DNA of 64,000 nt from Ignavibacteriota bacterium (GTDB lineage: Bacteria > Bacteroidota > Ignavibacteria > UBA10030 > UBA6906). Shown one piece after another: positions 3,074-56,153 of this stretch. The notes under the pieces are model-generated. The model was not told the DNA's origin and made no database searches. It was given only the letters and a program-made list of their open reading frames with translations. The stretch's first letter is position 1; every line of letters begins with the position of its first letter. The DNA is taken from contig CAVVZZ010000002.1 of NCBI GenBank assembly GCA_963752915.1, forward strand, positions 129,092 through 193,091. Direction: 5' to 3'. Made by a program: the position numbers and the translations under genes.

Positions 3074-4144
3074 TCAGCAGATTCGGGGGAGTTGTTCCCC
3101 TGAGAGCATATCGACCACCCTGCTTCCTCCAATGGTTGTCTTCATCACGACGGTACCTGCATGCTCGGCGACGACTTTGCCGATTGCTCTCGATTCCATT
3201 CCGGCGGGATGGCGACGCATAGCGGCAAGTACGCGGTCGGCGTGCGAAGCAGGAACAAATGCAAGCAGCTTACCCTCATTGGCAACATACAACGGATCGA
3301 ACCCGAGGATCTCACATGCTCCACGCACTTCATCGGGTATCGGGATGGAGGATTCGTCCAGGAGCATGCCGACCTTTGCAGCTTTCGCGATTTCATTTGT
3401 CGCGCTTGCCACACCGCCCCGCGTCGGGTCACGCAGGACATGGATATCGGGGCATGCCTCGAGCATTGCGGCCACAAGACTATGGAGCGGCATCGTATCA
3501 CTTTTGATCTGTGTTTCGAACTCCAACCCTTCACGGACCGACATGATCGCCATGCCGTGGACTCCGATCGGTCCGTTGACAAGGATCACGTCTCCGACAG
3601 CGGCCCGGTCGGGACGGATCGTCACCCCTTGTCTGACCGCGCCGATCCCGCTGGTGGTAATGAAGATCCCGTCCCCTTTGCCCCGGTCGACCACTTTGGT
3701 GTCACCGGTCACGAGAGACACTCCGGCCGCCTCTGCTGCACGCTGCATTGCCTGGACCACCCTCCAGAGATCGTCAAGCGGGAACCCTTCTTCAAGAATG
3801 AAGGCCGACGAGAGATACTGTGGGATCGCGCCGCACATTGCCAGGTCGTTAACTGTCCCATTGACCGCCAGTTCGCCGATGTTCCCGCCGGGAAAGACGA
3901 TCGGTTTCACTACATAGGAATCCGTCGTCATCGCCAGAGTTACCCCTCCGATTTCGACGATCGCTCCGTCGTGCTGTTTCGCAAGCTCAGGGTTGTTGAA
4001 CTGGGGCACGAACAACTTCTCGATCAACTGCTGTGTCAGTTTTCCTCCGCCCCCGTGGGCAAGAAGAATCTGCGGATAGTCGGAAATCGGGATCGGGCAT
4101 GCAGGCCCTTGGGCGAAGTCGTAGCGGGAAGAATCAGGATTCAC
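3074..4144 (-). CDS. hypE: hydrogenase expression/formation protein HypE (carbamoyl dehydratase)
   Basis: AIR-synthase-like fold motifs (ILLAHGGGG, GDTKVV, TTSGIG). Start taken at GTG 4144, which forms a GTGA overlap with the stop of the upstream MFS gene; the track ORF extends to 4285 with a non-homologous N-terminus. Confidence 0.85.
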   Translation of the reverse strand: MNPDSSRYDFAQGPACPIPISDYPQILLAHGGGGKLTQQLIEKLFVPQFNNPELAKQHDGAIVEIGGVTLAMTTDSYVVKPIVFPGGNIGELAVNGTVNDLAMCGAIPQYLSSAFILEEGFPLDDLWRVVQAMQRAAEAAGVSLVTGDTKVVDRGKGDGIFITTSGIGAVRQGVTIRPDRAAVGDVILVNGPIGVHGMAIMSVREGLEFETQIKSDTMPLHSLVAAMLEACPDIHVLRDPTRGGVASATNEIAKAAKVGMLLDESSIPIPDEVRGACEILGFDPLYVANEGKLLAFVPASHADRVLAAMRRHPAGMESRAIGKVVAEHAGTVVMKTTIGGSRVVDMLSGEQLPRIC

Positions 4145-5304
4145 GTTCGCGACTCTTGCGGTTGTTGAACGAAGACCAATAGCACGGTGGCCAGCGTCGT
4201 GAGGATGAGCGACACGAGCAACGGAAGTGATGGGGAGACCCTGTCCCAGAGGATCCCGGTAAGGAGTGACGACGGGAGCGCACACAATCCGACCACCATC
4301 TGGAACCCACCGAGGGTGCTTGCCCGAAGATCGGCCGGAGCGAGCTCCGCAACGAGGGCTTTTTGAACCGGCTCGAGAGCGGCCTTATGCGTCCCGTAGA
4401 GTACGAAGGCGACGATCACTGTCGCGACCGACCGTTCAAAAAGAAGAATCCCACACAACGCTCCCCATAAGGCAAAGGACATCGCCAGGACATTTCTCCG
4501 GCCGAGAGTGTCGGAGAGCCGACCGAACGGCAGGGAGAGCAACGAGGCCATCAACGTAAAGAGAAGATAGAGCAACGGGGTCAATGGTTGCGGCACTCCT
4601 CCCTCGACTGCGTACAGCATCAGAAAAGAATAGCTGAAGGCCGCAAGGGAAAACAAGGCATTGAGAACCAGGAACATGGTGAAGTTCCGGTCCAGGCGTT
4701 GGAACGAGAGCCCTTTGAAGATTGCGCCGCCGGCGACGGGCTTCTCTCGCACTCTCGCCATGACAAGGCCGACGGCAAACAATGAAGGAATCGCAGCAAG
4801 CATAAACAGCGTGCTGTAACCGAGGTGGAGAAATCCCATGCAGAACACGATGCCGAACACTGCGCCCAGATTGTCCATCGATCGTAGTAGACCGAAGTTT
4901 CTGCCCCGGTTGGCATTGGTGGAGGCATCGGCGACCATGGCATCCCGCGGCGAGCCCCGCATCTTGCCGGCACGATCGAGCGCCCGGCAGAGAATCAACT
5001 GAGGCCACGCGGCCGAAAGGGCATAGCCGACACGCGACACCGCTCCGAAGAGATACCCCAGCCAGATGAATATCTTTCGCCTCTTCAGCCTGTCGGAGAG
5101 ATAGCCCGAGAATGCCTGTGAGATCGAGACCAGCGCTTCGCCCAATCCGTCGATGAGCCCGAGGATCTCCTTGTTCGCTCCGAGCGACGACACGAAGAAC
5201 GGCCAGATCGGATAGATCGCGTCCGACCCGAAGTCATTCAGAAATGAGGCGGCCGCAAACGTCCGGACGGTGGACCGGGATTCCTTTTGAGACTCTTCTG
5301 CCAT
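4141..5304 (-). CDS. MFS-family transporter embedded in the hyp operon
   Basis: About 12 predicted hydrophobic segments. Duplicated MFS signature G(Y/R)LSDRLKRRK and GRLSDTLGRRN. Confidence 0.75.
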   Translation of the reverse strand: MAEESQKESRSTVRTFAAASFLNDFGSDAIYPIWPFFVSSLGANKEILGLIDGLGEALVSISQAFSGYLSDRLKRRKIFIWLGYLFGAVSRVGYALSAAWPQLILCRALDRAGKMRGSPRDAMVADASTNANRGRNFGLLRSMDNLGAVFGIVFCMGFLHLGYSTLFMLAAIPSLFAVGLVMARVREKPVAGGAIFKGLSFQRLDRNFTMFLVLNALFSLAAFSYSFLMLYAVEGGVPQPLTPLLYLLFTLMASLLSLPFGRLSDTLGRRNVLAMSFALWGALCGILLFERSVATVIVAFVLYGTHKAALEPVQKALVAELAPADLRASTLGGFQMVVGLCALPSSLLTGILWDRVSPSLPLLVSLILTTLATVLLVFVQQPQESRT

Positions 5305-5307
5305 GCG

Positions 5308-5778
5308 TTATGTCGGCACCACGGGGACACGCGGGAGCCGTCCCGTGAGCTTGCGGAAACCCCGGTGCCAGGAATGGGGAAAGACGTCCTTCGCGAGAAA
5401 CATCAGGAGGCACTCTCCGTGCGTCTCAGACATCTGGTGATCATGGCAGAACTGGATGGCCTCCTGCGACTCGGCGCCCTGCTGCATCCAGATGTTCGTG
5501 ATGCCGGAGGCAAACGCATCTTTCACCACCGATGCCGATTCTGCGGGCGGGACAACAACCACGATACCGTCCACCTTCCCTTTGAGATCGCTGACAGACC
5601 GCGCCATGGAGATTCCGTCGATTACTCCCCCCTGGCGATTCACCGGAATTGCAGTGTAGTGGTGCTTTGTGAGCTCGCGGTATACGCTTGCGCCAAATTC
5701 CTTGCCGCTCCGGGAGACGCCGACGACAGCCAGCCGTCGCAGTCCAAGGAACCGTGCGATGGTCTCACCCTTTTCCAT
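5308..5778 (-). CDS. CoA-binding domain protein (YccU/YneT-like)
   Basis: RLAVVGVSRSGKEFG Rossmann-like N-terminus and IWMQQG motif typical of the CoA_binding_2 family. 3-nt gap to MFS and 8 nt to hypD. Confidence 0.7.
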   Translation of the reverse strand: MEKGETIARFLGLRRLAVVGVSRSGKEFGASVYRELTKHHYTAIPVNRQGGVIDGISMARSVSDLKGKVDGIVVVVPPAESASVVKDAFASGITNIWMQQGAESQEAIQFCHDHQMSETHGECLLMFLAKDVFPHSWHRGFRKLTGRLPRVPVVPT

Positions 5779-5786
5779 GTTCTCAC

Positions 5787-6881
5787 CTATGTATTTTCAG
5801 TCTTGCGGAAATGATAGTATGCCGCGCATGCCCCTTCGGACGAAACCATTGGTGCACCGAGCGGACGCTCGGGAGTGCATTCCCGGCCGAAGGCAGGACA
5901 CTCATGCGGCTTCTTCCTGCCCTGAAGCACTTCTCCCGCAATGCACAGCGGAGATTCACGCGTCGTGATCCCTTCCACGGGAAAGATCTTCTCAGCATCA
6001 TAGAGCTCGTACCGGTCGCGAAGACGATAGCCGCTCATCGGAATCGTGCCAATGCCGCGCCATTTCCGGTCGACGATTTCAAAGACGTCCCGGATGATGT
6101 TCTTTGCCTGGGGGTTTCCCTCCGGCCGGACGACGCGGGCATATTCGTTTTCGACGATCGACTTCCCCTGCTCGAGCTGCGCCACCGTCATCGCAATGCC
6201 CTGAAGCAAGTCGAGGGGCTCAAATCCTGTGACGACAATCGGCACGTTGTAGGTTTTCGAAAGCGGATGGTACTCTCCGGTCCCCATGACGGCACAGACA
6301 TGGCCGGCAGCAAGAAATCCCTGCACCCGGTTGTCGGGTGAACCCAAGATTGCGCTCATCGCCGGGGGGACAAGGACATGGGAGACGAGCATCGAGAAAT
6401 TGTTCACACCGAGCCTGCTTGCCTGGACAACCGCCATCGCGTTCGGCGGCGCCGTTGTCTCGAATCCTACAGCAAAGAAGACGACTTTCTTATCCGGATG
6501 CTGCTGCGCGATCTTCACTGCATCGAGCGGGGAGTAGACCATCCGGACGTTCCCTCGTTCCGCCTTGACCGCAAGGAGGTCCTTGTCGGTCCCCGGCACC
6601 CGCATCATGTCACCGAACGATGTGAAGATGACATCGTCGCGGGAGGCAATCGCAATCGCCTTGTCGATCATCTCGAGAGGAGTAACGCAGACCGGACAAC
6701 CGGGTCCGTGAACGAGGGAAAGGGAGTCCGGGAGGAGTTCTTCAATGCCGTATTTGACGATCGTATGCGTTTGCCCACCGCAGATCTCCATGATCGTCCA
6801 TGGCCGGCTCGTGAGGGCGCGTATGTGCGCCGCCACCTTCTCGGCGTTTTCACGATCGCGATATTCGTCTACGTAGCGCAT
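5787..6881 (-). CDS. hypD: hydrogenase maturation factor HypD
   Basis: Conserved [13 protein letters not shown] and CxxHVC motifs, about 364 aa. Confidence 0.9.
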
Positions 6882-6939: not shown

Positions 6940-6980
6940 GTCCCCAAGTCTCCCCCTCTCCGCTTCTCCCCTTCTCCTCC
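6940..6980 (-). promoter_or_regulatory. about 40-nt polypurine (GGA-rich) tract on the hyp transcript between hypC and hypD
   Basis: Minus-strand transcript reads GGAGGAGAAGGGGAGAAGCGGAGAGGGGGAGACUUGGGGAC: five GGA motifs, one pyrimidine in 32 nt. Confidence 0.35.
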
Positions 6981-7229
6981 TCACCCCTTCTCGTCGGCGT
7001 CGTCAAGCTCTCCCATCTCCCGGAGCAGGCTCAGCGTCTCCAGCGCTTCTTTCTCATCCACGGTATTGAGCGCAAATCCCACATGGACAATCACGTAGTC
7101 GCCTTCCTTCACTGCCGGCACCCATTCGAGGCATACCTCTTTCGTCACCCCGGCAAAACTAACCACCCCCATCATCGGTTCAACAGACCGATCGATCGAA
7201 AGAACTTTACCCGGAACGGCGAGGCACAT
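6981..7229 (-). CDS. hypC: hydrogenase assembly chaperone HypC
   Basis: 82 aa, starts MCLAVPGKV (essential Cys2), HupF/HypC family. Confidence 0.88.
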   Translation of the reverse strand: MCLAVPGKVLSIDRSVEPMMGVVSFAGVTKEVCLEWVPAVKEGDYVIVHVGFALNTVDEKEALETLSLLREMGELDDADEKG

Positions 7230-7258
7230 ATGGAGTATCCTTTATAAAGACCGACTGC

Positions 7259-9557
7259 CTATGGCTGAAGGACGAGCGCTGCATAGAGCTGGCCCAGCGA
7301 GATCCCTCCGTCATTCGGAGGCACGCGTTGATGCCAGTACGGTCGGAATCCATGGTCTCGGAGCATTGTGACCGAGAGCGTCGTCAGTAGGGCATTTTGA
7401 AAGCAGCCGCCGCTGAGGACCACGCGATCGAGGCCAACCTGCTGTGCGACGGCCACGATACCCCGGGCAAGCGCGGAATGAAACCCGTACGCGATCGCTG
7501 CGACCGGCGTTCCCCGCCTGACTGCCTCGAGCATTTGACGAACGCCCGGAATCCAGTCAAGCACGAGCGCCGGAGACGTCTCCGTTTCTTTCTCGGAAAT
7601 TGTTGCCAGGGGCAGGGACAATGTCAACGCCAGAGTCGACCGAAGATGCAAGCCACTCCAATTCCATCGCTGCCTGCCCTTCGAACGAAGCACGCTGACG
7701 GATACCCAGGAGCGAGGCAACGCCATCGAACAGACGGCCGGCGCTTGTGGTCCGCGTCGCATTGATCCTGCGTTCAATCGCCCGGTACACGAGGCGAAGT
7801 TCCTCTTTGCTCCATTCTGCGAAGCACGGAAGTTCTGCAATACCGGGATCATCTCTCCGGAAACATTCGTAGACCATTCCCGAGGCAGAGCGACGAGGCT
7901 CATGCACAGCCGCATCGCCACCTGGAAGAACAAACGGGCGCAGCATCGCTGCTCTCCGGGACCCCTGCGCACCAACCACGAGGAACTCGCCTCCCCAGAT
8001 CGTCCCATCATCCCCCCATCCGGTCCCATCCCAGGCAACCCCGAGGACATCACCCGTCAGGTTGTTCTCGGCCATACATGCGGCAATATGCGCGTGGTGA
8101 TGCTGGATCCTTCTCACCGGCAATCCCATCCCTGCGGCTTCCCCTGTTGAAATGTAGTCAGGATGCTTGTCAGCCACAACAGCACGGGGGACGAGTTGAT
8201 AGAGGCGGACAAAATCCTTGATTGTCGATCGGAACGAGGCAAGCGATTGTTCCGTCTCGAGGTCTCCGAGATGCTGGCTGATGAAAATCGAGTTTCGCCG
8301 GGCGACCGCGACCGTATTCTTCAAATGTCCCCCAACGGCAATCGCGTCTGGCAGCGGTTCTCCAACGCTGACAGGCAACGGGGCATATCCCCTTGAGCGC
8401 CGGAGCACCAGATCTCTGTCGAGCAATACCCGAACTACGGAATCATCGACATACCGGACGATAGGGCGGTTATGGACCAGGAACAGGTCCGCGATGCCGG
8501 CGAGCCGGACGAGTGCTTCACGCTCGTCGGTGCAAATCGGTTCATCCGTGAGGTTCCCGCTGGTCGCGACAACGGGACGGGCCACCTTCTTGAGGAGAAG
8601 GTGGTGAAGCGGAGTATACGGGAGCATGATGCCGAGGGTGGGATTCCCCGGAGCGACGTTCCCGGCAATGAAAGACAACGGAGCGGCGTCCTCTTTCTTT
8701 TTCAACAACACGATCGGTGATTCCGGGGACCGGAGAAGACGTTCTTCGAGCGGCGACACAACGCACACGCTTCCCGCGGTCCGGATGTCCGGCACCATGA
8801 TCGCAAGCGGTTTCTCTTCACGACGCTTCCGCGCACGCAACGTCGCAACGGCATGCTCGTTGGTTGCGTCAACCATCAAGTGAAAGCCGCCGAGCCCCTT
8901 GAGCGCGACGACCTTTCCAGCAAGCAGCGCATCGCTCGCGGCCTCCAGCGCACGGTCATGGTCGGCGACGATGGATCCGTCGGGATTCCACAACTCCACG
9001 TGAGGTCCGCACGTCGGACAGGCATTCGGTTGGGCATGAAACCTCCGGTCGCCGGGGTCCTCATACTCCTTCCTGCACTCATCGCACATGTGAAATTTGT
9101 CCATCGACGTGTTCGGGCGATCGTAGGGCAGGGACGTAATGATCGTAAATCGCGGTCCGCAATTCGTGCAATTCGTGAACGGGTACCCGAACCGCCGGTT
9201 GGCGGGGTCCATGATTTCGGCGAGACATTCAGGGCATGTCGCTATATCGGGCAGGACAAAGGTCGATACCTCTCCGCTCCCGTCACTCTCGCGGATGGAG
9301 AATGACGAATATCCGGCACCGTCGAGGTAGGAATACTCGAGACTCTGGATGGACGCTCTCGCCGGTTTCTCCGGCTCGATTCTGAGAAGAAAGTGTTCAA
9401 CCTCACGATCTTCCCCTTCCGCGTCAATCACCACGCCGGACGTCGCGTTCATAACCCACCCCGCGAGCCGATGTTCGCCCGCAAGCCGATAGATAAAGGG
9501 ACGAAACCCGACCCCCTGGACGGCGCCACGGATTTCGATATGCACGCGCTTCGGCAT
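7259..9557 (-). CDS. hypF: carbamoyltransferase HypF; reading frame interrupted by an apparent 1-bp frameshift near 7605-7640 (sequencing error or pseudogene)
   Basis: N-terminal acylphosphatase domain, two Zn-finger CxxC pairs, YrdC-like and Kae1-like domains in ORF 7557..9557. The conserved C-terminus (LDWIPG...AAIAYGFH...LSGGCFQN...VPPNDGGISLGQ) is in a different frame (ORF 7259..8053). Confidence 0.8.
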
Positions 9558-9587
9558 AGAGAGGAAGACGTCTGCTGATGGATGTCA

Positions 9588-9654: not shown

Positions 9655-10101
9655 CTAGACCGGCGTCCAGCCGTCCACCAATCGCCGCACGACGGTCACG
9701 CTTTGGTCGATCGCCGCCTGTGTTGCTGCCGACACGCGTTCGGTGAACGAGAAATCTGTCGCAGGAATTCCGACCAGGTAGACGTGTTCAGGGACTGTCC
9801 CGTAGAGGGAGTTGCAGAGAGCGAGGAGCTGGGAGGGAGAGAACAGATGCGAATCAACGGGCGGCACCGGGACGGTATTGCCGATCGACGTACAGACGAG
9901 TTCATCGGTTCCCGCTGCTGCGTCGAGGAAGATGACCAGATGACGATGCGACAGGGACTCGGCGATCTCCGGCTGAATATCATGAACGATGAGAACGTCG
10001 ACCTCCGGGATCGTCTCACGCACGCGTTGCGCAGCGACGACACCGGCGGCATCATCGCCCCGCAATGTATTGCCATAGCCAATCACCAGCGGCGGGATCA
10101 T
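9655..10101 (-). CDS. hoxW: hydrogenase maturation endopeptidase (HoxW/HybD family)
   Basis: [15 protein letters not shown] and later H residue, characteristic of [NiFe]-hydrogenase C-terminal processing proteases. 4-nt overlap with the hoxH end. Confidence 0.8.
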
Positions 10102-11525
10102 CGCACCCGTTCGTCCAACACGTGGTCTGCGCTATCGACCACCCGGACATGGAGCGGCATGCTTCCGATGGCGTGGGTGGAACAGGAAAGACAGGGATCA
10201 AAACACCGGATCCCCGCTTCAATCCGGTTCAGCAGGCCTTCGGTGATTTTTGCCCCGTCCAGGTATTGGATGGCAAGCTGTCGCACCGTGCGGTTCATTG
10301 CCAGATTGTTCTGCGCCGTGGCGATCAGAAGATTGACATGCTGGAGCACGCCGTCCTGATTCACCCAGTACTCGTGGAACAGCGTCCCGCGTGGCGCCTC
10401 GCTCGCCCCGATCCCGTGCTCGCGGTTGATCATGGCGCGCGACCGGACCTTCTTGCCGAGGAGAGCCGGATCATTCAGGAGCTGCTCGACTTTCTCGACT
10501 GCGAACAGGAGCTCGATCAGCCGGGCATAATGGTAGTAGAAGGAGTTGTTCACGACGCCCTCCTCCCCTGCCAGCATTTTGAAACGCTTGCGTTCTTCTT
10601 CCGCGAGGGGGGTTGGGATGTAATCGCAGATGTTCACCCGGGCAAGGGGACCGACCCTGTACATCCCCTTCGGATAGCCCATCGGCTTGTAATACGGGAA
10701 CTTGAGATACGACCACGACTCCGATGCTTCGCCGAAGTGTTGACTGTAGTCGGCGGGATCAATCTTGTCATTGAGGATATTCCCGCCACTGTCGGTGACG
10801 CGGAGTGCTCCGTCGTAGTATTCGAGAGCACCGTCCTTCGCCACGAGACCCATGAACAGTGAACGGAAATTCCCGAAGTTCGGGATGTCCTTTTCGAGTC
10901 GGGTATGGATTTCCTTCAGCCGGTCCAGCGCCAGGAGCGATGTTTCCTTTGCCTCGGGGATCCAGGCGAGCAGCGTGTCGCGTTTCGCCGCTTCAAAGGG
11001 CTCGCGCACTCCCCCGGCGACCGCCCAGGGAGTATGGATTTTCCTGCTCCCGAGAACTTCGATGATTTCCTGTCCGAATTTCCTCAGGCGGATTCCGCGA
11101 CGCGCAAATTCCTTGTCCTTCTCGATCAGGCCGAACACGTTGCGGAGAGCGGGATCGCTATCGAAGCCCAGGAGAAAATCAGGCGACGACAGATGGAAGA
11201 AACTCAGCGCATGGGACTGGATCCACTGTGCAAGGGTAATGATGCGGCGGAGGACCTCCGCCGTTTCGGGGATGCCGACCGCGAGGATTGCATCTCCCGC
11301 TTTCGCGGAGGTAATCAAATGACTTGTGGGACAGATTCCGCAGATCCGCGACGTGATCCCGCCCATCTCCCACATCAGGCGGCCTTCGCAAAACTTCTCA
11401 AAGCCACGGAACTCGTTCACATGAAACCGCGCATCTTCCACCGACCCGTCATCATTCATCCGGATGGTGATCTTTGCATGCCCTTCGATCCGTGTTACGG
11501 GCGCGATGGTGATTGTTCTCGACAT
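10098..11525 (-). CDS. hoxH: [NiFe] hydrogenase large subunit, bidirectional NAD(P)-linked type (HoxH)
   Basis: N-terminal [10 protein letters not shown] and C-terminal [12 protein letters not shown] (Ni-binding Cys pairs plus protease cleavage site). Strong similarity pattern to cyanobacterial HoxH; start at Met38 of the track ORF ([16 protein letters not shown]). Confidence 0.9.
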
Positions 11526-11568
11526 TCGATCCTCGAAAAGTGAACTGAGAAAGCCGCCGCTTCCACGG

Positions 11569-12105
11569 TTATCCGTACCGGAGATACACCGGGGAGAACG
11601 CGGGCATTCTTCCTTCCAGGAGTTCCTGGATGGCAAACCAGATGGTGTCGGCGGTGGGCGGACAGCCGTGAATGAAGGCGTCGACGGTGATGATCTCGTG
11701 GAGCGGGCGCGCGGTTGTCAGAAGCTCGGCGATCGTCGGATAGTCGCGCGGTACCTGCGGCGTCACGTCCGCGAGTTCCACATAGGCACGGTCAAGCACG
11801 ACGTCCCGGTCATAGGCATTCCGGAGCGCAGTGACGTTCCCGGAGACGGCGCAGTCTCCGAAGGAGACGACGAACCGGGAATTGCGCCGGACCTTCCTTG
11901 CCTCCTCCGCATTCTCATTGTTCGTGACCGCACCTTCCACCAACGTCACATCCACATCGCGCGGAAACTCCTTGATGTCCGCAAGCGGGGAGTAGACAAG
12001 GTCGATCTTCCCGGCGAGCTCGATCAGTCGCTCGTCCATGTCGAGAAACGACATATGGCACCCCGAACACCCGCCCAGCCAGACTGTTGCAACTCTCGGT
12101 TTCAT
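11569..12105 (-). CDS. hoxY: [NiFe] hydrogenase small subunit HoxY
   Basis: [17 protein letters not shown] motif of NuoB-like hydrogenase small subunits. Start at the internal Met ([10 protein letters not shown]). Confidence 0.85.
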
Positions 12106-12118
12106 CGGTTCGTGGCTC

Positions 12119-12850
12119 CTATTCGTCTTCATGGATGTTGATCCACTCGCGTTTCAGCCGCGCAGTGACAATGTATTTCAGAAAGTCCGTCTTCTTTTCC
12201 ATCTCTGCGACGTTCTCCCCCTTCGTGATCAGGGCTCCGGTGGGGCAGACGAGGACGCACTTGCCGCATGCCGTGCACGATTCGGACTCACCCCACGGCT
12301 GGTTCATATCGGCAATGATGGTGCAATGGATGCCGCGGTTCGCGATGTCCCACACGTGCGCGCCCTCCACCTCGTGACACACCCTGACGCAACGGTTGCA
12401 CAGGACGCACCGGTTGTGGTCCATGATGAAATCTTTGTGCGTGGCATCAACCGTCTTCCGCGGATACAAGTACGGGACCCGCGTGTGTGTCAGGCCGACC
12501 TCATAGGCCAGGTTCTGCAGCTCGCAGTGGTTGTTCACGATGCACACGGCGCACTGGTGGTTGCCTTCAGAGGCAAGGAACTCGATGATGGTCCGACGGT
12601 GCCGTTGCAGGCGCTCGGTATTGGTCCGGACGACCATCCCTTCCTGCGGCCGTGTTGTGCACGCCGGGAACAGCTTCGGGGATCCTTCGATTTCCACCAG
12701 GCAGAGCCTGCACGCGCCCACATCGGAAAGCCCGTCCAAATGGCAGAGCGTCGGAATCCGGATGCCGTGCTGAGTGGCAATTTCGAGAATGGACTCCTCG
12801 TCGTTCCCGCTGAGCTGTTCGCCATCGATTGTCAGAGTGAGAATTGCCAT
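12119..12850 (-). CDS. hoxU: diaphorase subunit HoxU (2Fe-2S plus 4Fe-4S, NuoG-like)
   Basis: N-terminal 2Fe-2S ferredoxin Cys pattern (CHLDGLSDVGACRLC) followed by CxxCxxC 4Fe-4S motifs. Confidence 0.85.
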   Translation of the reverse strand: MAILTLTIDGEQLSGNDEESILEIATQHGIRIPTLCHLDGLSDVGACRLCLVEIEGSPKLFPACTTRPQEGMVVRTNTERLQRHRRTIIEFLASEGNHQCAVCIVNNHCELQNLAYEVGLTHTRVPYLYPRKTVDATHKDFIMDHNRCVLCNRCVRVCHEVEGAHVWDIANRGIHCTIIADMNQPWGESESCTACGKCVLVCPTGALITKGENVAEMEKKTDFLKYIVTARLKREWINIHEDE

Positions 12851-12861
12851 GAGCGTCCCTG

Positions 12862-14511
12862 TTATGCGTGCTGTATTCCGGAATCCTTGCCGGACGGGAC
12901 GAACCCTTCCGACGGGATCAGGAGCTTTTCATATTCATGACGGAAAAACCGCAACGTGGATAGCACGGGGTTGGGAGCCGCCTGTCCGAGGCCGCAAAGA
13001 CTGGTCTCTTTTACCATCGTGCAGAGTTCCTCCAGCAGCGCGAGATCCTCTTTTGTCCCCTTTCCCGCGCTGATTTTGTCAAGCAGTTTGAAGATGTGGA
13101 CGGTCCCGACCCTGCACGGGATGCATTTCCCGCACGACTCATCCATGCAAAAGTCCATAAAGTATTTCGCGACGTCGACCATTCCCGACGTTGAATCCAT
13201 GACAATCATGCCGCCGCTTCCCATTATGGAGCCCACCGTCGCGAGCGATTCATAATCCACGGGGAGATCGAGATGTTCCCGGGGGATGCAACCACCGGAC
13301 GGACCTCCCGTCTGGGCGGCTTTGAATTCCGTCCCTTCCGGTGTCCCTCCGCCGATATCGAAGATGATCTTCCGCAGCGGGATGCCCATCGGGACTTCGA
13401 TGAGGCCGGTATTCCGGATGTTTCCTGCAAGCGCGAAGACTTTTGTGCCCGTGCTCTTCGGCGTCCCGATGGAGGAGAACCAGGCGCTCCCCTTCCTGAT
13501 GATCGGCGCGACGTTCGCGTAGGTCTCAACATTGTTGATGAGGGTTGGCTTGCCCCAGAGGCCGCGTTCGGATGGATACGGAGGCCGGGGACGCGGACGT
13601 CCGCGCTTGCCTTCGATCGACCTGAGCAATGCGGTCTCTTCGCCGCAGACAAATGCGCCTGCGCCGATGCGAAGATCGATCCGGAAGTTGAATTGCGATT
13701 CGAAGATCCTGTTGCCGAGAAGGCCGAGACGCTCCGCCTGTTTGATCGCCAGCCGGAGCCGGTCGATCGCCAGCGGATATTCCGCGCGCACATAGATGTA
13801 TCCCTGATTCGCGCCCACCGCGTATCCGGCGATCGCCATTCCTTCAAGAACACGATGCGGGTCCCCTTCGAGAACCGATCGGTCCATGAATGCGCCGGGA
13901 TCGCCTTCGTCGGCGTTGCACACGGCGTACTTCTGGTCGCCCTTGGCTTTCCGGACAATTCCCCATTTCAATCCGGTCGGATACCCGGCTCCGCCTCTGC
14001 CGCGAAGGCCGCTCTTGCGTACCTCCTCGATGACGTCCGGCGGCTGCATCTCGGTCACGACCTTTGCCAACGCCTCATAGCCGTCTGCAGCGATGTACTC
14101 TTCGATGCTTTCCGCATTGATCTTGCCGCAGTTCTCAAGGACGATCTTGTGCTGCGCCGCAAAGAACGGGGCATTGTTGTCAAGAAGATGATCGTCGATC
14201 TTCTTCCCTCGGACAAGATGGTCTTCGACGATCTTCCTGCCGGTCGCATCGTCGACCCGTTCGTACACGCTCCCGTCAGACGAAACCTTCACCAGGGGAC
14301 CTTCACCGCAAAGGCCCATGCAGCCGGTCCCCAGCACCTCGACCTCTTTTTCGAGGCCGTGTTCTGTCAACGCCTTCTTGATGGCGTCGCGGGCGGCGAG
14401 ACTGCCGCAGGAAACACATCCGGCGGCGGCGCAATAGAGTATGCGATCGCGAAACTTCTTTTGACGATTGCGCTCTTCCTCTGCAAGCTCACGCAGGTCT
14501 TCGACGGTCAT
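12862..14511 (-). CDS. hoxF: diaphorase flavoprotein subunit HoxF (NuoF-like, NAD(P)H/FMN-binding)
   Basis: [20 protein letters not shown] site, CGKCxPCR 4Fe-4S, N-terminal thioredoxin-like 2Fe-2S segment. ATGA overlap with the hoxE stop. Confidence 0.9.
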
Positions 14512-15065
14512 GCTGCCACCTCCGCTGGCTGTTCCTGCCATTTCTTGATCCGGTCGACTGCACTGTCAGCAGTCAGCTTTCCCGCGACGTTATTGTCGAC
14601 CACCGCAACCGGGGCAAGCCCGCACGACCCTACACAGCGGGCGGACATCAGCGATACCTTGTTGTCGGCGGTCGTCTCTCCGAGTTTACAGTTGCAGTAC
14701 TGTTCCACGGCTCTCTGAATCGCCTCCGCGCCTTTCACGTGGCATGCCGTCCCCGTGCAAAGCACAAATGTGTGCTCGCCCTTGGGCTTGAGCGCGAAAA
14801 AGTGATAGAACGTCGCCACCCCGTACACCCGGCTCAGGGGGAGTTTCAATGATCGGGCGACATAGATCAGGAGATCGTTTTCGAGGAATCCGAAAATCCC
14901 CTGCGCTGCATGGAGGACTTCGATCAGCGCGTCACCGCTGTTATGATGTTTCGTGATGGCGCGATCGAGCAGCTTGAATCGATTATCGCCGCTGGGATGC
15001 TGTAAAGGAGTATTCAATGGAGTGTTCGAATTGATGAGAGATCCGGTAACAGTTGCCGGGTGCAA
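14508..15065 (-). CDS. hoxE: diaphorase subunit HoxE (NuoE-like 2Fe-2S); start codon uncertain (TTG at 15065 or downstream)
   Basis: [12 protein letters not shown]...LIEVLH...[10 protein letters not shown]...CVGSCGLAP, matching the NuoE/HoxE family including the cyanobacterial-type N-terminal extension. Confidence 0.8.
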
Positions 15066-15310: not shown

Positions 15311-15976
15311 TCAGATCGCAGGGTTCGACGGCCGTGATTGCTGGACCAGCCATTGACACCATTCCTCCATCCCGGCGTTCGTCAGAGCGGAGGTCTCGAA
15401 GATCGTGAGATGGGGATTGATCGAGAGAGCGTTCTTCCGGAGAACCTCCGGTCGGGCATTGATATATGGAACGAGGTCGATCTTGTTGATGAGAAGCACG
15501 CCCGCATTCCGGAACATCGCGGGGTACTTCAAGGGCTTGTCATCCCCTTCGGTCGTGCTCGCGACCACGACCTTCACATTCTCGCCCAGGTCATAGTTCG
15601 CCGGGCAGACAAGGTTTCCGACGTTTTCGATCACGAGGAGATCAAGCTCGGAAAGCGGGATCGCTGCCAGTGCCTCGCGGACCAGGTTCGCTTCAAGGTG
15701 ACACCCCCCACGTGTTACGATTTGCACCGCAGGGATGCCGTAGCGTTCGATGCGCCGTGCATCGATGTCGGTTTGCACATCGCCCTCGACGACGGCAAGA
15801 CGGACCTGCCCCTTGAGAAGCTCGATCGTCTTCTCCAGGATGGTGGTCTTCCCTGCCCCCGGAGAGCTTACCATATTAATGACGTACACGCCGTTCTCCG
15901 TGAACAGCGTCCTGTTCCGGAGCGCGACTTCATCATTCTTCTCCAGGACTTTTCGTTCGATCGTAAGGACACTCAT
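15311..15976 (-). CDS. hypB: hydrogenase nickel-incorporation GTPase HypB
   Basis: P-loop SPGAGKTT, CH motif, ENVGNLVCP (G-domain with metal-binding Cys). Confidence 0.9.
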   Translation of the reverse strand: MSVLTIERKVLEKNDEVALRNRTLFTENGVYVINMVSSPGAGKTTILEKTIELLKGQVRLAVVEGDVQTDIDARRIERYGIPAVQIVTRGGCHLEANLVREALAAIPLSELDLLVIENVGNLVCPANYDLGENVKVVVASTTEGDDKPLKYPAMFRNAGVLLINKIDLVPYINARPEVLRKNALSINPHLTIFETSALTNAGMEEWCQWLVQQSRPSNPAI

Positions 15977-16347
15977 GTGACACCCTCTTCCGCATCGTCC
16001 AGTTCAACTTCAAGAACGCGCATTTCCGTGCCGCCCGTGATCTCCCCTTCAGTACTCCCGCAGTGCGGGCACAGCATCATGCCATCGGCCGGAGTGGAGG
16101 TGGCACCGCAGGACCGGCAGCGTATCGTAAATGGAACCGTTTCGATGGCGAGGCGGGCACGGGTGAATGGAGACTCCGCGACGATGGCTTCAAAACAAAA
16201 CTCCAACGAATCGGCCACGATCCCTGCCTGCACGCCGACGACGACCTTGACCGTCCGGACGAGCGACCGCTCTTTCTGCGGGACATACCGCTCGACGATG
16301 GAAAGAATATTCTCGGCAATGGAAAGCTCATGCACGGAATTGCTCAC
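15973..16347 (-). CDS. hypA: hydrogenase nickel-insertion protein HypA
   Basis: MHELS N-terminal motif and C-terminal CxxC...CxxC zinc site. ATGA overlap with hypB. Confidence 0.85.
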   Translation of the reverse strand: MSNSVHELSIAENILSIVERYVPQKERSLVRTVKVVVGVQAGIVADSLEFCFEAIVAESPFTRARLAIETVPFTIRCRSCGATSTPADGMMLCPHCGSTEGEITGGTEMRVLEVELDDAEEGVT

Positions 16348-19650: not shown

Positions 19651-20485
19651 ATGACCAGCGATCGCCCTCTCGTGACTCCCGACCAGCGCGTCAGGCCCAT
19701 CGGCGTGTTTGACAGCGGCATCGGGGGCCTGACGGTTGTCCGGGCCCTGAGTGAGCGGCTTCCCCATGAGAACATCGTCTACTTTGGAGACACGGCACGA
19801 GTTCCGTACGGCCCGAAATCTCCGGAGGTCGTGCGCGAATATGCCGCGGACGACGTCGCCCTGTTGCTGCGTTCACGAGATCAAGATGGTCGTTGTGGCC
19901 TGCAACACCGTTTCCGCGGTCGCTCTCGATGTTGTCCAGAGACATGCCCGCGTCCCGGTTGTCGGCGTTATCGTCCCCGGCGCCGAAGCAGCCGTGCGAG
20001 TGACGAAGAAGAAACGGATCGGTGTGATCGGGACGTATGCAACGATCAACAGCAATTCCTATACGAATGCCCTGCGTCAATTGGACCCGGACGTTGAAGT
20101 GTTTTCACAGCCCTGTCCGCTTTTCGTTCCCCTCGCGGAAGAAGGGTGGATGGACCATCCGGTGACGCAAATGATCGCCCGGGAATACCTTTTTCCGTTG
20201 ACACTTCACAAGATCGACACCCTCATCATGGGTTGCACGCACTACCCGGTGCTGCGTGAGGCGATCGCAGCCGTGGTTGGGCCGTCGGTCATGCTCGTCG
20301 ACTCAGGCGCTGCCACCGCCGAAGAAGTGGTCCGCACCCTCGAGGAGAAGAACCTGGTGAACCCAAGCAAACAACGCCCCAACCTTCAATTCTTTGTCAG
20401 CGATATTCCCGCAAAGTTCACCGAAGTCGGAGAACGCTTCCTCGGCCATACCCTTGGAAAGGTCAGGAAGATCGCGTTCGACTAG
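19651..20485 (+). CDS. murI: glutamate racemase MurI; apparent 1-bp insertion frameshift near 19870-19873
   Basis: N-terminal [13 protein letters not shown]...[11 protein letters not shown] in frame 1 (ORF 19651..20097). Remainder (VVACNTVSA...GCTHYP) in the +1 frame (ORF 19751..20485). Removing one base gives a contiguous [16 protein letters not shown]. Confidence 0.75.
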
Positions 20486-52813: not shown

Positions 52814-53599
52814 ATGTGGAGAGTGCTCAGGAATCTTCGTCGGATCATCTTTCCGTCCCGGGACACCAGACCCGGGACGGGAGTCGAATCGCTGCTGACC
52901 GCTTCCGTCCTTCGCCGCCTCGAAACCGCTTTGGGCTTCACGATTCACAATCCCTCGTTCTTCGCTGAGGCGCTCGTTCATCGTTCGTACCTGCAGAAGC
53001 TCCCTCCCGGCACACATTCGAATGAACGATTGGAATTCCTGGGGGACGCCGTCCTCAGCCTGATTGTCGCCGAATTTCTCCACGGACGGTTCCCGAACGC
53101 CGAAGAGGGGGAACTAACCAAAACACGTTCCCGGTTGGTAAATCGCAAGGCTCTGGCAGCGTACGGCAAGGCTCTCCAGATCTCTGAATTCATCCTCCTG
53201 AGCCCGAGCGCCGCGCAGTCCGTGGACAAAGGAAGCGACGCAATCGTGGCAGACACTGTCGAAGCGATCATCGCTGCGACATACCTGGATGCGGGATTTG
53301 CGGCTGCACGGCAGTTCGTTCTCCGTTTGGTCACGGATGCCCTGACCCACCGGGCGATCGTGATCACCGACGATAATTACAAGAGCCTGCTCCTGGAGTA
53401 TGCTCAGTCGCGCGGCCTCGGCATCCCGCGGTATGTGATCGTGAATGAAGAAGGACCTGACCATGAGCGGATCTTCACGATCGATGTCCTCCTGGGCAAC
53501 GCCCGCTTCGGCGGCGGCACGGGAAAAAACAAAAAGAATGCAGAGCAGGCCGCCGCCGCTGAGGCTCTTCAGCATTTGACCCGCCCTGCAAAACACTAG
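52814..53599 (+). CDS. rnc: ribonuclease III
   Basis: RNase III signature ERLEFLGDAVL and C-terminal dsRBD. Start at the internal Met of the track ORF. Confidence 0.85.
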   Translation: MWRVLRNLRRIIFPSRDTRPGTGVESLLTASVLRRLETALGFTIHNPSFFAEALVHRSYLQKLPPGTHSNERLEFLGDAVLSLIVAEFLHGRFPNAEEGELTKTRSRLVNRKALAAYGKALQISEFILLSPSAAQSVDKGSDAIVADTVEAIIAATYLDAGFAAARQFVLRLVTDALTHRAIVITDDNYKSLLLEYAQSRGLGIPRYVIVNEEGPDHERIFTIDVLLGNARFGGGTGKNKKNAEQAAAAEALQHLTRPAKH

Positions 53600-53645
53600 C
53601 CCTCGATCGGCGAGGCCAACACAAAAGCGCAGCGGAACCGAGAGC

Positions 53646-54060
53646 GTGACCATGGCGATCATCACAGATCATGACGAGATCAAGGAGATTCTCCGCACCG
53701 CGCAGACGATTGCAGTGGTGGGACTGTCAGACAGGCCCGAGCGGGACAGTTTCCGGGTAGCCCGGTATCTCCAGTCGCAAAACTACCGGATCATCCCCGT
53801 TAACCCGCTTATTCCATCAGCGATCGGGCTTGCATGCGCGCCCGATCTCGAGAGCATCAGGGAGCCGGTCGACATTGTCGATGTGTTCCGGCGCTCTGAA
53901 TTCGTTCCTGCAATCGTCGAATCGGCGATTCGCATTCACGCCCGGACCGTCTGGTTACAGGTAGGCATTGTTCACCAGCGAAGCAGCGGCCCGCGCCGAC
54001 GCCGCCGGGCTGAATGTTGTGATGGACCGATGCATCATGGTGGAACACCGATTCCCTTGA
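53646..54060 (+). CDS. CoA-binding domain protein (YccU-like paralog); apparent 1-bp insertion frameshift near 53976-53980
   Basis: IAVVGLSDRPERDSF...VWLQVGI in frame. Conserved C-terminus [26 protein letters not shown] is in the +1 frame, ending at TGA 54058-54060 just before the next ATG. Confidence 0.6.
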
Positions 54061-54061
54061 C

Positions 54062-55405
54062 ATGCCGATCATGCCTCTCCTCCCGCGGTTCATTCTGATC
54101 ACGCTGTTCCTCCTTGTTCTCGGCGGGACCGTTGCGGCATGGTCCCAGGCGTCCCGGCAGAGCAGCGATGCTCCCCTCGGTATTATTGACACGGTGATCG
54201 TCGGCGGAAACACCAAAACGCATGCGTATGTCATCCTTGATGAAATGACGCTGCACAAGGGCGACACGGCGACGTTCAATGCCATGGAGTATGACAAGAA
54301 CCGCATTTACGGGCTGGGGCTGTTCACGCGCGTGGATATCGCCTACGATTCCCTCCAGGGGACGCGGTTCCTGTTCGTTGACGTCAATGAACGATGGTAT
54401 CTGATCCCGTACCCCATCTTCGGCTTTCGTGACGGCGACGTCAAGCGGCCGTTCGGCGGGGCGGGGTTCCTTCACAATAACGTCGGGGGACGAAACCAAA
54501 AACTCTATACCTCGGTGGTGTTCGGGAGCGATCCGTCCGCGGCGGTGTCGTTCAGCGATCCGCTCATCGACCGTGTCAACCATCTCTATTTCTCCGGGGG
54601 ACTGTCGTTCAGCCGGGTGCGGAACAAGACCGAGGTCGATGTCCAGACGACCGGACCGTTCGACGAATTGCACTACGACATGAACGGAACACTGGGCAAA
54701 CGATTCACGCTCTCACAAACGGCCGGTTTCAATCTCGGATATCATATTATCCACGTCTCCTCCTGGTCGCCGGGGAGGACTGTGTCCAATGATGGAACCG
54801 ACCGTTTCATCTATGCCACCGCCTCCTACGGCTTTGATTCCCGTGATTTGTATGAGTATGCCAGTCGGGGCGACTATCTCGGCGTCAGTTTCACCAAATA
54901 CGGTTTCGGGGAAGGGACGTTCAACATCAGCCGCCTGTTTGCGGACATGCGCGCATATCGCGAACTCCCTCTGGGACTCATCATCGCGTCGCGTCTCTTC
55001 GGGAACCTGACGTGGGGAGGAGAGGTTCCGACGTATGCCCATGTGTTCTTCGGTTACGGAGATCGCCTGCGAGGATGGTTCAATACGGTGATCGAGGGAG
55101 AAGATAACGTGGGGTATACCCTTGAGCTCCGCCGTTACATTTTTCCCCCGACGTATTTTCGGATCGGATTCGTCCCGCTTCCCCAGGAGTTCTCCATCTG
55201 GCGTTTCGGCATCGCCGCCGCCCTGTTCGCCAATACAGGGACCTCATGGTATCGGGGCGACCGGCTGAATTGGAATTCGTTGTACTCCGGCTACGGCGGA
55301 GGACTGCATTTCTTGCTCCCGTACAGCGTCATCATCCGGGTCGAATACGCATGGAACCAGTTCCACCACGGCGAGTTCATTCTCGACCTGCGCGGATCGA
55401 TCTGA
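54062..55405 (+). CDS. Omp85-family outer-membrane beta-barrel protein with a single POTRA-like domain
   Basis: Signal peptide, one POTRA-like segment, barrel motifs (GGGLHFLLPYSVIIRVEYAW) and C-terminal aromatic-rich end. 447 aa, much shorter than BamA. Confidence 0.7.
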   Translation: MPIMPLLPRFILITLFLLVLGGTVAAWSQASRQSSDAPLGIIDTVIVGGNTKTHAYVILDEMTLHKGDTATFNAMEYDKNRIYGLGLFTRVDIAYDSLQGTRFLFVDVNERWYLIPYPIFGFRDGDVKRPFGGAGFLHNNVGGRNQKLYTSVVFGSDPSAAVSFSDPLIDRVNHLYFSGGLSFSRVRNKTEVDVQTTGPFDELHYDMNGTLGKRFTLSQTAGFNLGYHIIHVSSWSPGRTVSNDGTDRFIYATASYGFDSRDLYEYASRGDYLGVSFTKYGFGEGTFNISRLFADMRAYRELPLGLIIASRLFGNLTWGGEVPTYAHVFFGYGDRLRGWFNTVIEGEDNVGYTLELRRYIFPPTYFRIGFVPLPQEFSIWRFGIAAALFANTGTSWYRGDRLNWNSLYSGYGGGLHFLLPYSVIIRVEYAWNQFHHGEFILDLRGSI

Positions 55406-55415
55406 TTTACTCCTG

Positions 55416-56153
55416 ATGCTTATGCTCGACGACGTTTTCTACGCCCCTCCCCGGGACATTCACGGCGACCGCATCGTCCTCGATGATGACGAACGCCGCC
55501 ATCTGATCACCGTAACCCGTCACGATGTCGGCGATACGATCACCGTCGTCGACGGACTGGGGACCGCCTATGCGTGCGTGATTCAGGAGATCGACAAGAA
55601 GAACGTCGTTTGCGCTGTTCGATCGCATGCGACAACGGCACTGCATCCGCGCATTGTATTGGGCTTCGGGCTCTTGCGGAATCCTTCGCGCATAGACTCT
55701 CTTGTCGAGAAGGCGACCGAACTCGGCGTTTCCAGGTTCGTCCCCGTCCTGACCGAACGCGTCCTCCACCACCGCATCAAAGCCGACCGTTGGGAGAAGA
55801 TCGCCCTTGCCGCGATGAAGCAATCAGGCCGGTCGCACTTGCCGACAATTGCTTCTCTCACCCCGCTCAACGAGTTCTTCAACGCAACACCGGCGAGTGC
55901 ACTCGCCATCATCCCGCACGAAAAAGGAAGTTACCCACCGCTGACGCAGGTGAGGGCAACACAGGACTTCGATGAGATTGCGATTTGCGTGGGGCCGGAA
56001 GGCGGGTTTACCGATGAGGAGATTGATCTTGCGGTGAAACACGGGTACCAGCCCGTAAGTCTCGGGGAGTATCGTCTACGAGCAGAAACGGCGGCGATTG
56101 CTGCGGTGGCGAATTGCAGCTTGGGAAGGCTCAGAGTAGGACGTAGGGAGTAA
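55416..56153 (+). CDS. rsmE: 16S rRNA (uracil1498-N3)-methyltransferase
   Basis: PUA-like N-domain, SPOUT C-domain with GPEGG motif. Confidence 0.85.
   Translation: MLMLDDVFYAPPRDIHGDRIVLDDDERRHLITVTRHDVGDTITVVDGLGTAYACVIQEIDKKNVVCAVRSHATTALHPRIVLGFGLLRNPSRIDSLVEKATELGVSRFVPVLTERVLHHRIKADRWEKIALAAMKQSGRSHLPTIASLTPLNEFFNATPASALAIIPHEKGSYPPLTQVRATQDFDEIAICVGPEGGFTDEEIDLAVKHGYQPVSLGEYRLRAETAAIAAVANCSLGRLRVGRRE

Follow-up and report, generated by a model that had tools for sequence, protein, structure and literature searches.

A single extra base in the hypF gene of an Ignavibacteriota metagenome-assembled genome is very probably a consensus error

The hypF gene of an Ignavibacteriota metagenome-assembled genome (MAG) is broken near its 3' end by one extra T. 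We conclude, with high confidence, that this T arose as a consensus error in a MAG that was unpolished and probably built from long reads, and that the real gene is ordinary and intact. The gene lies in a stretch of 64,000 nucleotides, referred to in full as the window, that also encodes a hydrogenase cluster. An earlier sequence-only reading of this DNA had left open whether the break was a 1-bp error or a genuine inactivating frameshift. An independently assembled contig (L114) and the genome-wide pattern of +1 breaks strongly support the former, while the latter found no support.

Results

Minus-strand hypF (9557..7259) switches frame and is covered by two overlapping ORFs, 9557..7557 (666 aa) and 8053..7259 (264 aa), designated frames A and B (Table 1). 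Pfam matches in frame A are to PF00708, PF07503, PF01300, PF17788 and PF22521 (positions 1–129 of 241), corresponding in order to acylphosphatase, two HypF zinc fingers, YrdC/Sua5, the Kae1-like HypF_C and the first half of HypF_C_2. The final ~23 codons of this frame ahead of its stop at 7557 are out-of-frame read-through. Frame B supplies the second half of HypF_C_2, ending in ...NDGGISLGQ... before a stop codon at 7259–7261, and its match to TIGR00143 positions 649–740 corresponds to residues 54–141 of the frame-B piece 7699..7262. The break splits HypF_C_2, whose profile matches stop at position 129 and resume at 143 of 241; the domain matches bracket the break from about 7576 to 7641. The sequence-only reading had placed the N-terminal domains in one frame and the C-terminal part in another, with a switch at 7560–7640 between ...ASSVDSG and ...SLPLATISEK and an intact length of ~760 aa. 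The Pfam and TIGR00143 matches agree with this layout; the switch, at 7626/7627, falls within that interval, and the mended gene has ~765 codons counted from the ATG at 9557.

As a HypF family member the gene is unremarkable. Acylphosphatase, two zf-HYPF, YrdC/Sua5, HypF_C and HypF_C_2 domains occur in the expected order, and the TIGR00143 equivalog cut-off of 466 bits is exceeded by frame A alone (735 bits) and by the intact version on L114, which matches positions 1–740 of 741 in one stretch (801 bits). Genes for HypC, HypD and HypE and a [NiFe] hydrogenase are found in genomic association. Escherichia coli HypF, the point of comparison for TIGR00143, has the same domains in the same order, and here hypC, hypD and a hox-type hydrogenase adjoin the gene. 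Apart from the extra T, which puts the final ~120 residues out of frame in the window, it does not differ from E. coli HypF.

Table 1. Features of the window and of its genome (G000) that bear on the hypF frame break. Coordinates are window positions unless preceded by a contig label.
Feature	Position	Strand	Evidence or remark
hypE-like gene, intact	3074..4285	-	AIRS and AIRS_C domains
hypD, intact	5787..6881	-	PF01924, 511 bits
hypC, intact	6981..7229	-	PF01455; exact product also on L114
hypF 3' part, frame B	7259..7625	-	PF22521 143-241/241; TIGR00143 649-740/741
hypF 5' part, frame A	7557..9557	-	TIGR00143 1-628/741, 735 bits
TT dinucleotide holding the extra T, +1 shift	7626..7627	-	Sole indel versus L114; DNA alignment with congeners
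Small gene between hoxH and hypF	9655..10101	-	Maturation endopeptidase by position only; no Pfam match; L117 (1,296 bases) 100% identical
hoxE-F-U-Y-H-like genes	10098..15065	-	Domain content; frames all open
hypB, intact	15311-15976	-	PF02492; L116 without indel
hypA, intact	16003-16332	-	PF01155, 100.9 bits at C2:145094-145423
murI +1 frame break	19866..19874	+	TIGR00067 1-56 and 60-249 in two frames
Extra A, non-coding, 5 nt upstream of CoA-binding gene start	53641	+	Absent from L115
Extra G breaking CoA_binding_2 gene (53646-54060)	53978	+	Absent from L115
Other [NiFe] large-subunit genes, open	G000 C2:451766-453013, C2:471859-473148, C11:183157-184296
Amidase gene, four breaks	G000 C11:582815-584501
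nadA, three or four +1 breaks	G000 C11:602643-603630
glnS, three or four +1 breaks	G000 C11:606553-608274
valS, three or four +1 breaks	G000 C13:723706-726610

Across 30 related genomes searched, hypF was uninterrupted wherever a contig spanned the whole gene. Eleven of these loci were fetched, three from the same genus (70–83% protein identity) and eight from more distant relatives, and their stop-to-stop lengths ranged from 767 to 921 codons. When aligned as DNA with the three same-genus orthologs, the window was longer by exactly one base, the alignment gap falling at GGCGTTGACA versus GGCGCC-ACG (about 7625–7628), within the hypF linker where conservation is lowest. The comparison with orthologous hypF sequences that the sequence-only reading had called for thus gave single frames throughout and placed the extra base at the same spot. 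The portion of hypF in frame B is 70% identical to the ortholog of the closest congener (G002) with zero stops, which argues against a genuine frameshift.

Two readings would preserve a functional HypF from the sequence as written. Programmed +1 ribosomal frameshifting or transcriptional slippage would give a full-length product, and both the direction of the shift and the good conservation of the two hypF halves are compatible with it. Yet a single frame is found in all 11 relatives examined, the site is not conserved among orthologs and lies in the linker just described, no common motif unites the other +1 sites in the genome, and the shift is missing from L114, which is 99.9% identical. We regard recoding as extremely improbable. 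A naturally split HypF, in which two polypeptides assemble, is equally hard to credit: beyond the existence of two ORFs nothing speaks for it, the break lies in the middle of a domain, and the only listed start of frame B, a GTG at 8053, precedes the break by about 430 bases. No relative is split at this point, and the single frame on L114 contradicts the idea.

The extra base is absent from an independent assembly. Searching for the exact 82-aa HypC product led to L114, a Logan contig of 2,607 bases assembled from the public run ERR12035932. Over window positions 6979–9586, 2604 of 2607 aligned bases were identical, with three substitutions, and the only indel was the extra T of the window, which reads GGCG-TT-GACA where L114 reads GGCG-T-GACA. 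On L114, hypF is one frame of 774 codons, 765 of them from the ATG equivalent to 9557. The earlier reading had named one base more or fewer, restoring a single ORF, as the observation that would identify an error; L114 supplies one base fewer, as an assembled contig rather than a read pile-up. The suggestion that a homopolymer might explain the break fared less well: a single T is indeed doubled to TT, but most other insertions in the genome lie outside homopolymers.

Further Logan contigs gave a consistent result. L115 (run ERR12035936) matched window positions 53413–55615 at 2199 of 2201 bases and lacked two window bases, those at 53978 and 53641. L116 (1,925 bases, hypB-hoxE-hoxF) and L117 (1,296 bases, hoxH-hoxW), which were picked independently of frameshifts, showed four substitutions with zero indels and 100% identity, respectively. 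In all, 8,029 bases were compared across the four contigs and three indels were seen, every one an extra base in the window. The Logan contigs differ from the window by 0–4 substitutions each and are taken to represent the same organism as the MAG, although the substitutions in L114 and L116 mean that they may derive from a sister strain. Exact-product look-ups with the 666-aa frame-A product, HypD, GlnD and the 299-aa ORF that follows murI returned no record, and JGI metagenome contigs, scanned for the exact pattern across the hypF site with a variable gap, gave no match.

The substitutions between the window and the ERR12035932 contigs number seven (7436, 7448, 7570, 15078, 15287, 15386 and 15716) and are either strain microdiversity or consensus substitution errors.

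These few substitutions mean that more than one strain may exist, which gives some room to a genuine inactivating 1-bp insertion in hypF of the MAG strain, which would have no [NiFe] maturation while a sister strain, represented by the Logan contigs, remained intact. We consider this very unlikely. A related proposal holds the TT allele to be genuine in one strain, a maturation-null variant living beside the wild type that lost the use of all four [NiFe] hydrogenases through a single base; it is likewise very unlikely. Across 2.3 kb of hypF neither a stop nor a second lesion was found, and L114 bears an intact allele with 99.9% identity.

The genome as a whole shows the same type of lesion in excess. 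G000, the genome of the window, is a MAG of 15 contigs and 5.2 Mb. G002 ORFs without stops and 150 aa or longer, taken from 360 kb of that genome, served as tblastn queries against the whole of G000. At 50 unique sites, a G002 ORF from this 360 kb continued in a different G000 frame. Under strict criteria, with minima of 70% identity and 40 aa for each of the two flanks, 29 breaks were retained, and 28 of the 29 were +1, i.e., one extra base. In the reverse comparison, G000 ORFs were searched against G002 with the same strict filter and mirror images of G000 breaks were removed; such images arise where a G000 ORF runs on out of frame and its tail matches the identical wrong frame in G002. About three sites remained in this control genome. 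The likely G002 breaks (C13:84836, 85035 and 99723) indicate a genome with roughly ten times fewer than G000 that is nevertheless not error-free.

Nucleotide alignment of all 29 strict sites revealed arbitrary contexts, such as CAGC[T]GACGG and AACGG[C]GATCC; the inserted bases were mostly outside homopolymer runs, and the many +1 sites had no common motif. Nonsense codons were nearly lacking. Shadow ORFs and 5' leaders inflate a raw count of internal stops, and the count was therefore restricted to non-overlapping longest ORFs. Stop codons in the high-scoring segment pairs lay almost wholly in 5' leaders or at extreme 3' ends, leaving at most one gene-body stop in about 85,000 aligned codons; it lay in an amidase gene with four breaks. 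An insertion bias of 28:1 with hardly any nonsense mutations is a technical pattern rather than one of mutational decay, and it speaks against a genuine hypF frameshift.

Broken genes include valS (4 breaks), glnS (3), nadA (4), accC, relA/spoT and mutL. Neither valS nor glnS has a second copy in G000, so the lesion strikes essential single-copy genes. Four frameshifts in the only valS would be impossible in a living cell, and the breaks can therefore not all be real. The hypF lesion is of the same type as 28 of the 29 strict breaks, including those in single-copy valS, glnS and murI, which further weakens the case for a genuine frameshift.

Breaks were locally clustered, with about 15 in C11:583–609 kb, which suggests low-coverage stretches of the assembly. 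The +1 break in mutL (C11:501866–501903) raised the prospect of a mutator origin for the indels. We rejected it, since the break in mutL is an artefact like the others and individual essential genes are broken several times over.

Two further lesions within the window had been likened to that of hypF, and both were found. The genome's only glutamate racemase gene, murI, is split at ~19866–19874, with TIGR00067 matches at C2:148790–148957 and C2:148965–149534. The CoA_binding_2 gene is split at 53978, and L115 carries it as an intact gene of 135 aa. The extra A at 53641 shows that insertions reach beyond coding sequence.

The hydrogenase cluster is otherwise intact, as had been claimed. Its minus-strand order is hypA, hypB, hoxE-, hoxF-, hoxU-, hoxY- and hoxH-like genes, a small gene, hypF, hypC and hypD, followed by genes for a CoA-binding protein and an MFS transporter and then by hypE. 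Every frame except that of hypF is open, including hypA through hypE and the hox genes. The hypE-like gene probably starts downstream of its listed GTG. The hox genes encode 2Fe-2S thioredoxin-like, NuoF-like, NuoG-like, small-subunit and large-subunit domains, a content that suggests a putative NAD-linked bidirectional [NiFe] hydrogenase. There is one hypF in G000 and there are four [NiFe] large-subunit genes, all with open frames. Real loss of hypF would consequently silence all four enzymes while the remainder was maintained, which is biologically unlikely. The four hydrogenase operons, together with the open frames of all other hyp genes, again count against a genuine frameshift.

The insertion of a CoA_binding_2 gene (5308–5778) and an MFS transporter gene (4141–5304), both on the minus strand, between hypD and hypE is unusual for a hyp operon. 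The CoA_binding_2 gene at 53646–54060 is a second paralog.

Discussion

False pseudogenes are a known outcome of indel errors in the consensus of assemblies that are unpolished or made from long reads, and the hypF break falls in this well-known class. Our favored explanation is that many spurious single-base insertions entered the consensus of a contiguous MAG, presumably as long-read consensus was built without short-read polishing. One of them, at 7626/7627, would shift hypF by +1, and a gene of 765 codons would thereby look like an ORF of 666 codons plus an out-of-frame tail. The organism would be expected to mature its hydrogenases normally. The near-identical L114 without the indel, and the removal of two more extra bases by L115, fit this explanation.

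In several respects G000 resembles other assemblies with indel errors: it has hundreds of single-base breaks, essential genes are struck repeatedly, independent contigs lack the extra bases, and it is highly contiguous for a MAG. Typical nanopore consensus errors are errors in homopolymer length, often deletions. Unlike these, the errors of G000 are almost solely insertions and mostly outside homopolymers. This error profile is mildly unusual, and it concerns the method of sequencing or assembly only, not biology.

A genuine hypF pseudogene could resemble the sequence as written, since one frameshift close to the 3' end would deprive the protein of the C-terminal half of HypF_C_2, its second Kae1-like subdomain. 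The present case differs from genuine pseudogenes in that the cluster shows no other decay, an intact allele is at hand and indispensable genes carry identical lesions.

The value of the hypF finding is in quality control only. G000 should not be annotated as devoid of HypF, and hence of hydrogenase maturation, nor of MurI, ValS, GlnS, MutL and others. Extrapolation from about 30–50 breaks per 360–390 kb predicts roughly 400–700 broken coding frames in 5.2 Mb, and metabolic reconstructions and pseudogene counts may be distorted by split genes. Frameshifts, pseudogenes, split genes or recoding reported from G000 should be presumed artefacts unless reads show otherwise. The contamination estimate of G000 (4.21%, with completeness of 100%) may likewise be inflated by marker genes split by insertions.
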